This document shows positions 1 through 32,368 of a stretch of 64,000 nt of DNA, piece after piece. The DNA lies in IMG/VR virus record IMGVR_UViG_2706796753_000001, positions 1 through 64,000 of that record. One strand, written 5' to 3'. The DNA comes from a virus (taxonomy: Duplodnaviria > Caudoviricetes). Each line of letters begins with the position of its first letter. Position 1 is the first letter of the stretch. Made by a program: the position numbers and the translations under genes. The notes beneath the pieces are model-generated. The model saw only the letters and a list, made by a program, of their open reading frames with translations, was not told the origin of the DNA and did no database searches.

Positions 1-671
1 AAACATTCTGACAATTTACCTAGTAGCTCCCTGCAAACATACGAAAGCCTAGTAGCTCCTTGCATACTAGACTCATATATAATCCCTCTATTAAAATGTT
101 AAAATTTCTCCGCTGCTGCCCCTATCATACTTTCATAGAATTGTCAAGTTAAATACGCACAACAAATTACAACATTAAATTGTGTGAATATTATATACAA
201 TTCGTACAAGCTCGACAGCATTTTTGTTTCTGACATTAGAATACTATAGACGACAACAAATTACAACATTGTCCCATTTAAAAGTGTATTCATAATATTC
301 TGACAATTTGAATAGCGTGAATAGTCTGACAATTAGAGTGATTATAATTAGTTAAATATTCTGACAATTTAAAATAGTTGTCTATATTATCAGATAATTA
401 AGAATATTCTGTTATATATAATATTGTGAATAGTTATAGTATTCTGACAATTAGGATGAGCAGAAGCAGAGGGAGTTGTCTTAGTATTCATAATAGTCTG
501 ACAATTTAAATGTTATGAATGTTTAGAATAGTCTGACAATTAATATACACAATCTGCATACTATTAAGAATATTCTGACAATTGTCTGATACGAGCTGCT
601 CCAGAGTTATTATAATATTCTGACTATTTAGACGATTCAAATTATCAGACAATTAAGAATATACTATTAAC

Positions 672-700
672 TTGACAAATGGGAGTAGGTGTGTTATATA
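672..700 (+). promoter_or_regulatory. SigA-like promoter inside the repeat array
   Basis: TTGACA-17 nt-TATATA with TG extension. Confidence 0.55.
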
Positions 701-1021
701 TAGGGAGTTGTTTGAATAGTTAGAATTATCAGACTATTTAGAACATTCATATTATCAGACAATTATATATGAAACTGTGAGTCTGGGAAGCCTTGATACT
801 ACTGGTCTGAGAGGTTATTTCCTCTGTACGGGCTTCTAGAGGGCTTCTTAATACAAATGCTAGGGGAAGGGATTAGAATCGCTCTAGCGGCGTCTGAGAG
901 CCTTTAAAATAGATTTGACAAATGATAGATTGTGTGGTATGGGAATTAGTTATAATATTCTGACTAACTGAATATTCTGACAATTCAACTTCTACTATAT
1001 ATGCATGAGCAGGTGCGCGCG

Positions 1022-1050
1022 TATATACCACACTGTAGCTGCTATGTCAA
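1022..1050 (-). promoter_or_regulatory. SigA-like promoter facing into the repeat array
   Basis: Minus strand TTGACA-17 nt-TATATA with TG extension. Confidence 0.5.
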
Positions 1051-1199
1051 GTATTAAATGTATTATGAATATTCTGACAATTTAGAATAAACTTTCTTTT
1101 ACTTTTTGTCATAAAAGGGTTGTCAGCAGCGTATAATAATAGTAAGATGAAAGCAGTTAAGGAAGCGACAAACTTCCTCAAAAATAATTAAAAAAGTAC

Positions 1200-1228
1200 T
1201 TGAAATACTATTTAATAAATGGTAAGAT
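1200..1228 (+). promoter_or_regulatory. SigA-like early promoter for the 1261 gene
   Basis: TTGAAA-17 nt-TAAGAT with TG extension and AT-rich upstream sequence. Confidence 0.6.
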
Positions 1229-1260
1229 GAAATTAACTTAAAAAAGGGAGATGTTGAGAT

Positions 1261-1845
1261 ATGACAAACGTATATGAATTAAACCAAGAGGTAAACGTAG
1301 AGATTTTCAGAGGTGCAGAGTTCACAGGTAAAATCGTTGATATTAACTCGTATAACTCAATATACTGGGTAGAACGTGCAGAGGACAAAGAGTGGTTTAT
1401 GGTTGACCCAGAGGACGACAAAATTGAGCTGGTACAAACTGAATTACCTCTATTAGAGAGAGGCGAGGACTATATCCGCGCTAACTCTCATTTATTACCT
1501 GCTACGGATATCATGTCCACTATCAAAGAGGTTAAAGCTAAAATTAAAGATGAGCTATCAGATGAGTTCGTTATGTGCCGTGATATTGACTACGTAGAGA
1601 TTACTATCTTTAACCACGGTGAGGGTTGGATTAAACACCCAACTAACTACGGTGAATATATCGAAGACTTAGAAGGTTGGGATGTTGAAGTCAATCTGCA
1701 TATGGAGGACGACTCACGTATATCGTTCGTAATTGGTGAGTTTTTCAATGAGGCGGACGCGTTAAAGCATGCAAAGGCTATGCGCTCTAAAATGAATCGT
1801 TCTTCATTCGATATTGAATTACCTGTAAGAGTATACTCTTGCTAG
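1261..1845 (+). CDS. Hypothetical early protein, acidic
   Basis: 194-aa ORF, SD AAGGGAG, promoter upstream. Confidence 0.8.
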   Translation: MTNVYELNQEVNVEIFRGAEFTGKIVDINSYNSIYWVERAEDKEWFMVDPEDDKIELVQTELPLLERGEDYIRANSHLLPATDIMSTIKEVKAKIKDELSDEFVMCRDIDYVEITIFNHGEGWIKHPTNYGEYIEDLEGWDVEVNLHMEDDSRISFVIGEFFNEADALKHAKAMRSKMNRSSFDIELPVRVYSC

Positions 1846-1890
1846 TATGCCCAGCTAGTACCATATATTAAAACTACTATACAAAGGGAG

Positions 1891-2253
1891 ATGTTTATTA
1901 TGTTAACTACTGCAATGGAGCTTGCTATTATTGAATTGAAAGGGATTGTTAGTCATGCTACCTTCCTAGCCGACCAGTGGGAGCAGGGTATTGCCTATAC
2001 TACTTGCCTTGTCGATGATATTAACGATAGATTAAACGCCGCTTCACGCCTTATAGAAGGTGAGTTCAACGATACGCGAAATGGTATCATAGCTATTGAG
2101 ATGCAGTTCATTGAGAGCCGTATTAAGCAGGTATATCATGGCATCTATATAGGTGATAGAGTCACTAGCACTGGACTATCACACCTAGCAGAGGCAGCCT
2201 ATCAGACATGCAATACTATCACTCAATACGCAATGGAAGTATATGCCAATTGA
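1891..2253 (+). CDS. Hypothetical early protein (start may be 1900)
   Basis: 120-aa ORF with SD AAAGGGAG. Confidence 0.75.
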   Translation: MFIMLTTAMELAIIELKGIVSHATFLADQWEQGIAYTTCLVDDINDRLNAASRLIEGEFNDTRNGIIAIEMQFIESRIKQVYHGIYIGDRVTSTGLSHLAEAAYQTCNTITQYAMEVYAN

Positions 2254-2509
2254 TTACATCTCGATTCATAAATATAAGAGGTTGTCAATGATTATTTTGT
2301 CAACCTTTTTATTTAAATTTATTTTACTATTTTACTTGACATATAACCCCACCCGTGCTTTACGACCATGTGTTCGGTTACCTCCCCTCTCTACCCCGAC
2401 TACCTCAGGTAAAAATCCCAGAAAAATTTTGAAAAGTCGCTATATCTATCTTGCACAAACCCTTTATATATACAAGCCCCATCCCTATAATAGCAGCCCC
2501 TTATATAGT

Positions 2510-2713
2510 CTATTTATTCATAATGTCATCTAGTATAAGGATAATGCAGCCCGCTACTCCTAAGTTGAATAATATATAGCACGTAGCAGCCCTAAAGTAT
2601 GCTCTATCTGTTATCTGGTCATATACGTACCTTGTCTTTAACTTCTCCATATATAAGCTGGTTAACAACCCCACCGTTAAAAGTCCTACTATTCCTATAA
2701 TATGTAATAACAT
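2510..2713 (-). CDS. Small two-TM membrane protein
   Basis: Two hydrophobic segments, SD AAGGAGG. Confidence 0.7.
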   Translation of the reverse strand: MLLHIIGIVGLLTVGLLTSLYMEKLKTRYVYDQITDRAYFRAATCYILFNLGVAGCIILILDDIMNK

Positions 2714-2831
2714 TCATGATACCTCCTTAAAATTTCCTAAAAATTTTTCGACTTGGTTTAAAGGTCACTTCCATATTTTACCAATTTAATATGTATAGAA
2801 AGAGAGGTTGTGAGCCTCTCTGTGTTATTGT

Positions 2832-3020
2832 TTATCTGATAAGGTCTGCTATCATTGACGATATCATGTCTACTGCTACGGTAACTCCTGTTATAAGGGA
2901 TAACATAGCGTATATGACTAACTTCTTAACGTCTTCTTTTTTTATCTCTTCGAATGCCATTTTAATGAAATTATAAGAAGAGAGTAAGAATATAGTGATA
3001 AATATAGTTCGTAATATCAT
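2832..3020 (-). CDS. Small two-TM membrane protein
   Basis: Two hydrophobic segments, SD AGGAGG. Confidence 0.7.
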   Translation of the reverse strand: MILRTIFITIFLLSSYNFIKMAFEEIKKEDVKKLVIYAMLSLITGVTVAVDMISSMIADLIR

Positions 3021-4098: not shown

Positions 4099-4293
4099 TT
4101 ATTTCATCCATGAATCATCGTCATAATATTTACAAGTCTCTGCTTTACTGAAATCTTTTATTTCTGCATCACAGTTAATATTTTCGCATATGTTTAACCA
4201 AACAACCTCTTCCTCTGTAGATAGTCTCCTATTTACATATGTTTTACTATAACCGCAATCTCCACAGTTTTTCATAATACCTTCCTTACTCAA
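4099..4293 (-). CDS. Small Cys-rich hypothetical protein
   Basis: CxxC and CxxxxC motifs. Confidence 0.65.
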   Translation of the reverse strand: MSKEGIMKNCGDCGYSKTYVNRRLSTEEEVVWLNICENINCDAEIKDFSKAETCKYYDDDSWMK

Positions 4294-31625: not shown

Positions 31626-32368
31626 TTCTGATACTCTCCTTTATGTTAAGTTTTAAATGTTTTTATTTAGAGTATAATACTTTGTTTACTAATTGTCAAA
31701 TATATTTTTTACTATTAGTATTTATTTTATTCTTGATAGAGAGAATTAGTATTTATTTCTGATGAAGGGAATTACTTTTTATTAAATTAAAATGGGGCAA
31801 CCTAGATACCCTATTTTATTTTATCTATTCTCTATATAATATTATTTATATTATTATTAATTATTAAATATTTCATTTATAATATTAGTTATTAAATATA
31901 ACTCTGTAATATTATATAGACGTCCGAAAAAAATAAAATAGGGTACTGTGTCAGAGATAAACCTAATAGAAGTGTGTATCAAGATGCAGAAGGTATTTAC
32001 TATAGAATAGGACTAATTGTATTCATTAAGATATAAGACATCCTCATCGAGCTCTCAGACCCCTTAGAAGTTAAATTAATATGTATATGTATTGTGTAAA
32101 TTCTATCAGAAATAATTATTCAGAATATTTTAAATATTTTTATAATTACAAGGATTCTTGTATCAGTTTTTGGTATAATAGAGTTGTAGGATGTTCCTCC
32201 TGCGGTATCCATGTTCTCTCCTCCTCTAACCTCGTGAAGACAAGGATATCATTCGTAAGTTTAATACGCCTTAGAGCAAATGTGCGGAAACACGTTTTCT
32301 CTCCCTTTATTAGAATTTTCTTATCTCTCCTCATACGTATCGTGTGGGGAGGGTACTTTTTATATCAT

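Follow-up and report, generated by a model that had tools for sequence, protein, structure and literature searches.

The left end of virus record IMGVR_UViG_2706796753_000001 carries a gene-free stretch of about 1.1 kb studded with 15-bp boxes that resemble the operators of CodY, the global regulator of Firmicutes that senses branched-chain amino acids (BCAA) and guanosine triphosphate (GTP). The record is 159,837 bp long, and the window analysed here is its first 64,000 nucleotides. Positions 1-1,260 of the window are 98.4% identical to Bacillus phage Bastille and 94-96% identical to phages Evoli, OTooleKemple52, Kamfam, Goe5 and Janet. All six are members of the genus Bastillevirus (Herelleviridae, Bastillevirinae) with hosts within the Bacillus cereus group, so that the nearest relatives bear out the guesses of an earlier note on this DNA, which had placed the phage in the Bastillevirinae and its host in the B. 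cereus group. The only open reading frames (ORFs) in 1-1260 are three on the reverse strand, of 44-52 amino acids, and in most related records nothing is annotated in the matching region; as far as can be told, the description of the stretch as non-coding is upheld. Two genes follow on the plus strand, called as ORFs of 194 amino acids (1261-1845) and 120 amino acids (1891-2253). Neither matches a Pfam family, and both fall into PHROGs families without known function.

In the related phages the corresponding stretch begins at base 95 and occurs in two copies per record, and the terminal repeats of OTooleKemple52 are reported to be 2,426 bp long (PMC5946042). The initial 94 bp of the repeat, starting with AGGTTTT, were found at the far right of the record (159,744-159,837), and the same AGGTTTT has been reported at the termini of related B. 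cereus phages (PMC5418689). Because these first 94 bp stand at the right end, the record is a one-repeat representation cut 94 bp inside the repeat. By comparison with the relatives, the left physical end would lie 94 bp before window base 1, at 159,744 of the record, and alignment to OTooleKemple52 puts the probable right boundary of the repeat near ~2,400 (2385..2405, CCTCTCTACCCCG). The gene-free 1.1 kb is the outer portion of this ~2.5-kb terminal repeat, which contains the gene-free kilobase, a few promoters and the two small genes.

There are a total of 16 boxes with at most three mismatches to the CodY consensus AATTTTCWGAAAATT, starting at 2, 178, 294, 320, 355, 385, 438, 492, 527, 569, 614, 640, 724, 750, 971 and 1068; six have two mismatches and ten have three. 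Our scan with AATTTTCWGAAAATT reproduced exactly the 16 positions and the range of two to three mismatches given in the earlier note. The 64-kb window contains 27 matches at this threshold compared with 6.41 expected (standard deviation 2.44), and none of 100 shuffles attained this number (maximum 13). In the whole genome, 16 of the 44 matches with at most three mismatches and 6 of the 12 with at most two fall within 1-1096, which is 0.7% of the genome, and the density is 14.6 boxes per kb in 1-1096 against 0.176 per kb in the rest of the genome. Five hundred first-order Markov simulations with the composition of the region itself yielded a mean of 0.15 and a maximum of 2 boxes. The comparison with a shuffled and matched background that the earlier note had proposed, carried out here by mismatches to the consensus, reveals strong clustering in 1-1096.

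The earlier note had taken the boxes as variants scattered about the CodY consensus. We found instead that they share a sharper and asymmetric consensus of their own, AATAKTCTGACAATT, mostly in one orientation, with GACAATT at the right of the plus strand in all but a few copies. The genome contains 15 copies of AATAKTCTGACAATT at two or fewer mismatches, of which 13 fall in 1-1082 (reversed control, 0). Among 125 sites pooled from eight phages, 93 have one orientation and 32 the opposite; the base counts are C 93 (74%), T 22 and A 10 at position 11, A 82 and T 40 at position 4, T 61, G 43 and A 21 at position 5, and T 113 at position 8. None of 185,579 species genomes contains the 24-bp palindrome AATTGTCAGAATATTCTGACAATT exactly. 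The exact 15-mer occurs in the same genomes at at least 120 loci from many phyla, a count that we do not take as evidence of enrichment.

The boxes are organized in a 9-bp register. We kept the strong boxes in place, randomised their flanks, and scored the CodY-likeness of the 15-mers at offsets from -15 to +15. In the window, offset -9 alone stands out, with 5.40 mismatches compared with 7.71 expected (z = -6.6; 15 sites, as box 2 is too close to the edge). At 93 sites of six diverged relatives, the signal is z = -10.9 at offset -9 and z = -5.2 at +9, and in the 108 sites of the window and the six relatives together offsets -18 (z = -8.9) and +/-26 (z about -8) are also enriched. The partners offset by 9 bp that the earlier note described are thus real, and the run 715-750 reads as quoted there. 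The phasing is local, with two to three units per operator; the spacings of the strong boxes (26, 35, 30, 53, 54, 35, 42, 45, 26, 84 and 26) are not all multiples of 9. Since offsets -9 and -18 stand out, most sites are operators of 24-33 bp made up of two or three 9-bp units. The units within an operator improve toward the GACAATT end, as in 509-541 (AATGTTATG AATGTTTAG AATAGTCTG ACAATT) and in the run 715-750.

This organization corresponds to that of CodY sites. Sites of 24 nt are described as two CodY boxes with a 6-bp overlap (PMC9318921, PMC4608796, PMC5314169), and the published double site of Bacillus subtilis, Listeria and Staphylococcus aureus is AATTTTCWGAAWWTTCWGAAAATT (PMC9318921). 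At five or fewer mismatches to AATTTTCWGAAWWTTCWGAAAATT, 11 of the 17 matches in the genome lie in 1-1100 (simulation mean 0.00). Because the AATATT of the array is the AAWWTT joint, an A at position 4 is to be expected in the second, downstream unit of such a site. These patterns give good support to the view that the array follows the grammar of CodY operators (15-bp box, 9-bp overlap, AAWWTT joint).

Words of the array are also present at known CodY targets. Motif 2 of the proven strong CodY site II of B. subtilis braB, tATTaTCTGAcAATT, contains GACAATT (PMC4608796). In Streptococcus salivarius, exact AATATTCTGACAATT is listed for CodY-repressed thrC and AATTGTCTGATAATT, which is box 640 of the window on the opposite strand, for livK; in both cases the box was predicted and the repression measured (PMC5966866). 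Functional CodY sites have three to five mismatches in braB (PMC4608796) and four in B. cereus clhAB2, and the B. cereus protein, which has the same consensus, acts through this four-mismatch site (PMC5633148).

We searched for the array 15-mer in the chromosomes of 201 Bacilli genomes and found 267 occurrences with at most one mismatch, compared with ~59 for the reversed control (hand count); 119 of the 201 genomes have at least one match. Nine of 12 chromosomal copies inspected are intergenic and three are inside ORFs. Seven of the nine intergenic copies adjoin genes of amino-acid or peptide traffic: three stand at orthologous sodium:solute symporter loci, and the others beside genes for a BrnQ-type BCAA transporter, an M20 peptidase, an Opp/Dpp-type binding protein and an Orn/DAP decarboxylase. 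At one copy the BrnQ-type transporter is divergent from a class-V aminotransferase, which is the layout of the braB/iscS arrangement (PMC4608796). Four genomes of 5.0-5.6 Mb with tandem Hbl/Nhe-family genes contain 115-138 boxes with at most two mismatches, compared with 61-78 in the control. From the distribution of the Hbl/Nhe family and from their genome size, these four are very probably members of the B. cereus group. One of the four, G038, has boxes with zero or one mismatch directly before genes for a BCAA transporter, an amino-acid permease, three tandem peptide-binding proteins, a CBS-domain protein, CstA and a Rap phosphatase. At the Rap phosphatase gene, a perfect box and AGTTTTCTGACAATT are 67 bp apart. 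As the host clade uses the same word and four mismatches are tolerated, the phage boxes equal or better many working chromosomal operators. The assignment of the boxes to the CodY type in the earlier note is well supported by the double-site grammar, the braB motif, the regulon boxes and the host chromosomes.

Motifs of other regulators, compared by eye, did not fit the boxes: Spo0A (TGTCGAA), TnrA/GlnR (TGTNA-N7-TNACA, where the phage palindrome has N8), the Fur 7-1-7 arrangement, ArgR/AhrC, CtsR, DnaA, and the -10 elements of sigma-H, sigma-B and sigma-E. A few copies overlap at their left edge with the ScoC motif AATAnTATT given in PMC4608796, at one mismatch. A variant of the word with a broken CTGA core, AATATTCTTACAATT, is present in at least 13 of the 201 Bacilli genomes (3.3-5.6 Mb; for example G038, G150, G162 and G016) and is probably a conserved site or a coding word unrelated to CodY.

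The operators fall into several groups, annotated here on the plus strand except for one reversed box. The first box, AACATTCTGACAATT (2..16), lies ~95 bp from the physical left end; homologous first boxes occur at 96-110 in OTooleKemple52 and at 86-100 in Grass, a phage of B. subtilis. The reversed box found by the consensus scan at 178..192 reads AATATTCACACAATT on the minus strand. The dense part of the array comprises three composite operators at 285..369 (24-mers at 285, 311 and 346, ending in boxes 294-308, 320-334 and 355-369), two 33-bp operators at 376..452 in 9-bp register (376/385/394 and 420/429/438; boxes 385-399 and 438-452), three further 33-bp operators at 474..583 (474/483/492, 509/518/527 and 551/560/569; final boxes 492-506, 527-541 and 569-583), and the operators with boxes 614-628 and 640-654 at 605..663. 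Three of four close relatives have an extra 36-bp unit with one more box in 474..583 (indel at 569). On inspection for promoters, the 12 operators in 285-663 had no convincing promoter among them. The CTGACA of the repeat was rejected as a promoter -35, since most copies are without a -10 at 16-18 nt.

Box 640-654 ends 17 nt 5' of the -35 of a right-pointing promoter-like sequence, P672 (672..700; TTGACA, 17 nt, TGtTATATA), whose -35 is kept in Bastillevirus, Wphvirus and phage LY2. A second one, P915 (915..943; TTGACA, 17 nt, TGgTATGGG), also points right and is conserved across genera, and both resemble conserved sigma-A-type promoters. Directly downstream of P672 are boxes 724-738 and 750-764 with phased partners from 715 (715..764), a position at which relatives have two to three boxes of different sequence; directly downstream of P915 are boxes 954-968 (weak) and 971-985 (954..985). 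Two or three boxes lie downstream of each of P672 and P915, in the range of about +5 to +60, both in this phage and in Wphvirus. Because the sequences and spacing of these boxes differ between this phage and Wphvirus, it is the position of the boxes that is conserved rather than their sequence. The last composite operator (1059..1082) ends in box 1068-1082, 37 nt before the -35 at 1120, and position 11 of this box is C here and A in all four close relatives. Ahead of the first gene are two promoter-like sites with the -10 TAAGAT (1120-1148 and 1200-1228), and these tandem sites, with their unusual -10, lie within a repeated AATRGTAAGATGAAA.

Between P672 and P915 there is a GC-richer block of 135 nt (780..912, plus strand) that stands outside the array. 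It is 77-82% identical in Wphvirus and LY2, while the rest of the repeat has diverged. RNAalifold gave -20.6 kcal/mol for 780-912 with a weak covariation signal (covariation term -0.44, double changes in 4 of 34 pairs), and the block may be a candidate small RNA. No Rfam family scored above threshold in window 1-3000, the best match being PhrS at 18.4 bits against a gathering score of 37.

The motif is kept in Wphvirus and other genera whose flanks have diverged beyond the reach of megablast. At two or fewer mismatches to the array consensus there are 14 copies in Hakuna, 13 in ALPS, 13 in SageFayge and 14 in Crookii (all Wphvirus), and 8 in LY2. A blastn search with 280-770 returned array-like matches in 104 records. 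All are Bacillus phages, with Bequatrovirus-type phages and P59 of Cytobacillus among them, and most of the matches lie within annotated terminal repeats or 500-1000 bp into the record. Among five close relatives, 8.3% of the columns in boxes are variable compared with 13.9% of the other columns (Fisher p = 0.02). Changes in copy number involve whole units, as in the 36-bp indel at 569. Grass has a double site at 77-100, a box at 870 and a weaker reversed box at 4128 near the right repeat boundary. Listeria phage A511 has four boxes (31,706-32,123) in a 670-bp gene-free stretch upstream of its transfer RNA (tRNA) cluster. The window itself contains a double box at 32,115-32,147, in an AT-rich gap before the tRNA region, and expression of the phage tRNAs may depend on the factor that recognises the array.

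An exact-motif scan of IMG/VR identified at least 118 stretches, most of them with single matches, and three striking contigs of large uncultured phages, G205, G206 and G207. G207 is a 123,246-bp genome classed as complete, with direct terminal repeats, and 36 of its 38 matches to AAWWTTCWGAMAATT (at most one mismatch) are at 329-2,557 or 113,830-122,787, ranges that form one ~12-kb stretch spanning the record ends. G206 is a fragment of a G207 relative with the same box pattern reaching the contig ends. In G205, a 38.6-kb fragment, the first 12.2 kb contain all 71 matches. The three contigs thus concentrate 26-71 boxes in an early stretch of ~9-12 kb, and the reversed control has 0 matches in each. 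Their boxes overlap in pairs and runs (for example AATATTCTGAATATTCTGAAAATTCTGACAATT) and are flanked by terminators and by the strong TTGACA/TGnTATAAT promoters that serve small early genes. The box-rich loci of G206 and G205 include a 5'-3' deoxyribonucleotidase gene, and a sigma factor is also encoded in box-rich loci. A recurring module in the three contigs consists of a terminator, a box pair, a GC-rich 12-mer such as GCGCCGGCCGCC, a box and a strong promoter. In a further contig (L022, 192 kb) the motif matches are a coding repeat in several genes starting with MHKYS(D/E)NCPFCK and are unrelated to the array.

No homologues of the terminase large subunit or portal of this phage were detected in G205-G207, an empty search being weak evidence, and no HTH_CodY domain was found in the phage. 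We compared all ORFs of the genome with ~60 kb of box-rich loci by tblastn and found one convincing shared protein, with a DUF7448 domain (E = 1.5e-18); a second match was marginal (E = 6e-4). The DUF7448 protein was rejected as the binder because its distribution does not track the arrays: it is present in this genome, G205, Grass and phiEF24C, and was not found in G207, G206, Hakuna, Crookii, SPO1, K or A511. Since the phages are so different and the factor is needed at the first-expressed DNA, the shared factor is most simply a host protein.

The array is a real, strongly non-random and widely conserved set of predicted CodY-type operators in a phage terminal repeat, and host CodY is probably the protein that binds it. 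We think it somewhat probable that these operators gate the first promoters of the phage, with titration of CodY as a possible second role. What is observed is the sequence, with its statistics, its conservation and its identity with proven or regulon CodY sites; CodY binding, its activating or repressing sign and any effect on phage or host are inferred. Upon entry of the DNA into a well-fed cell, effector-charged host CodY would coat the block 285-663 and occupy the boxes flanking P672 and P915 as well as the box upstream of the first-gene promoters, and the first phage transcription units would be coupled to the nutritional state of the host. Boxes at conserved places around P672 and P915, and boxes beside early promoters in G205-G207, favor such control in cis. 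Boxes downstream of the start site are the usual geometry for CodY repression or a roadblock. Boxes upstream of the -35 can activate, as proposed for B. cereus clhAB2 (PMC5633148). Because downstream boxes suit repression and upstream boxes can activate, the sign of control may differ between promoters.

As phage DNA replicates, the boxes would compete with chromosomal operators for a limited CodY pool. Two CodY dimers are reported to bind per operator duplex, and a generous estimate is 10,000 protomers per cell (PMC5314169). Since ~11 double operators would take ~44 protomers per copy, a few hundred copies of the repeat would match this pool, and titration is arithmetically possible. It would be at least a by-product, and perhaps a second function. 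Our reading is that the main role of the array would be as a nutritional gate acting in cis on the promoters of the repeat, and that titration would be real and possibly secondary.

Several observations weigh against the gating reading. None of the 16 boxes is nearer than two mismatches to the 15-bp consensus, and a symmetric dimer would not need a consensus as sharp and asymmetric as the one that they share. The exact non-textbook 15-mer dominates in the unrelated contigs too, and at position 11 most of the best chromosomal boxes in G038 carry A or T; the optimum of the binder may differ from that of CodY, leaving room for a protein of related specificity. Twelve operators within 485 bp, with no clear promoter among them, far exceed the usual need of regulation in cis. 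The extra conservation of the boxes is modest, with p = 0.08 when the conserved block 770-945 is left aside. SPO1, phage K and phiEF24C, whose hosts have CodY, showed no cluster and no excess over the reversed control, and Grass, on a B. subtilis host, has only two to three sites. The fixed A4 and C11 suggest a dedicated binder, a consideration that is outweighed because the double site, the braB and regulon boxes, the Bacilli chromosomes and the host clade all point to CodY.

A broader proposal, of which we are decidedly doubtful, is that large virulent Firmicutes phages of unrelated lineages equip the terminal DNA that they express first with dozens of CodY operators as a "nutrient checkpoint plus sponge", with Bastille-like myoviruses and the 123-kb G207-type phages as examples. 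CodY would then decide whether the immediate-early genes fire, and replication would drain the CodY pool, which would switch on the amino-acid supply of the host and provide a copy-number timer for the phage programme.

That titration is the main function appears unlikely. In that case the array would draw off CodY as the DNA amplifies and de-repress amino-acid synthesis, peptide uptake and proteolysis for the synthesis of phage proteins. The 12 operators of 285-663, which have no clear promoter between them, fit this role, as does the location of the array inside the terminal repeat, which gives each virion DNA two copies. The array packs six boxes with at most two mismatches into 1.1 kb against the 115-138 (control 61-78) of a whole B. 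cereus-group-like genome, a few hundred copies could suffice on the arithmetic above, and copy number turns over by whole units. Selection for affinity, however, should drift to the best box, yet every box is at least two mismatches away from it. The boxes also hold fixed positions relative to conserved promoters and stand beside early promoters in G205-G207, and Grass manages with its two to three boxes.

We consider it quite improbable that the boxes are bound by a dedicated phage or virion protein, such as the terminase small subunit, a protein of the repeat boundary or the DNA end, or a replication initiator, and that the likeness to CodY sites is incidental or mimicry. The array starts about 75 bp from the physical end, Grass keeps the first near-end box together with a reversed box ~70 bp inside the right repeat boundary, and the sites have a sharp oriented consensus of their own (C11 in 74%), with the same exact 15-mer in other phages. 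Against these points, the full CodY grammar would have to arise by chance, and the same word stands at CodY-type regulon genes in host chromosomes. The boxes of G205-G207 extend over 12 kb between early genes, unlike pac or cos, and those of A511 lie before a tRNA cluster. G205-G207 are without a detectable homologue of the terminase or portal of this phage, and the sole convincing shared protein in the ~60 kb compared, DUF7448, has a distribution that does not fit. An immediate-early region, moreover, acts before phage proteins exist, unless the protein is carried in the virion.

Mechanical use of CodY or another abundant host protein, which would pull in or pause the entering genome or shield its end from nucleases, after the model put forward for the DnaA boxes in the injection-stop region of phage T5 (10.1101/866236), is very unlikely. 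It would agree with the position of the array in the untranslated part of the repeat next to the physical end, with the comparable box-rich terminal stretch of G207, and with the deoxyribonucleotidase gene in the stretches of G206 and G205; dmp, a pre-early gene of T5, is of the 5'-3' deoxyribonucleotidase type. The model for T5 is itself a proposal, however, and box positions tied to promoters would be superfluous. We know of no case of two-step entry among Bastille-like phages. A functionless expansion of AT-rich tandem repeats, as the gain and loss of units in blocks (36-bp indel) and the predominance of one orientation might suggest, is scarcely credible given a motif that is kept across genera with non-alignable flanks, is present in unrelated phages and is never approached in number by composition-matched simulations.

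Returning to the predicted CodY gate, the phage array shares with chromosomal CodY operators the box AATTTTCWGAAAATT, the 9-bp overlap, the variants GACAATT and AATTATC, the AATATT joint, and words identical to the proven braB motif and to boxes before BCAA and peptide transport genes. It differs in density and form: chromosomal promoters have one to five motifs, whereas the phage has 16 boxes, about 11 of them as double sites, in 1.1 kb, and these predicted operators mostly share one orientation and a fixed C11. The closest strategy is that of the virulent Bacillus phages phi29 and Nf, in which footprint-proven Spo0A boxes are described as acting on early promoters (PMC2731898). As in our phage, sites for a global regulator of the host would tie the lytic cycle of a Bacillus phage to host physiology. 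Spo0A, however, signals the onset of sporulation and CodY the sufficiency of BCAA and GTP, and phi29 has a handful of footprinted sites, whereas the array is known here from its sequence.

The closest anatomy is that of T5, whose left terminal repeat is described as containing an untranslated injection-stop (iss) region with eight conserved DnaA boxes (10.1101/866236). Both are large, gene-free and repeat-rich stretches in the long terminal repeat of a virulent phage, conserved among its relatives and made of boxes for an abundant DNA-binding protein of the host, which in the case of our array is a prediction. They differ in the host protein and the host phylum, and the role proposed for the T5 region is mechanical, a stop of injection at the membrane. 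A search of a limited collection of papers found none linking CodY with these phages or describing a phage CodY array, in agreement with the statement of the earlier note that no phage CodY-decoy array has been described. The array is a new case of host-regulator sites on a virulent phage, within a class of sites already known.

CodY is the main link of nutrient supply, stationary-phase adaptation and virulence in low-GC Gram-positive bacteria. If the phage does wire its first promoters to CodY, or drain it, the array would show how lytic phages sense whether a cell merits infection, as a second case beside phi29 and Spo0A, and would be a natural example of DNA that acts as a decoy for a global regulator. 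For Bastille-like phages, which are candidate agents against B. cereus in food, efficacy in starved or stationary cells may hinge on this short array, itself conserved in over a hundred sequenced phages.

Other features of the repeat and window lie outside the array. No initiator gene adjoining the array was seen among the neighbouring genes, no dedicated origin test having been run, and the GC-skew turn of the window is near 30 kb. The word CTCTCTACCCCG is found both at the putative right repeat boundary (window ~2385-2400) and at the annotated boundary of Grass (4208, word at 4199-4211), and is a candidate boundary or cleavage signal. The outermost 290 bp of the window contain few boxes and have other repeats: CCTAGTAGCTCC(C/T)TGCA occurs twice, at 19-38 and 48-67, and the exact 18-mer ACAACAAATTACAACATT occurs twice in the stretch 159-270, starting at 159 and 253. 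These outermost repeats (19-67 and 159-270) may be sites for another protein near the physical end.

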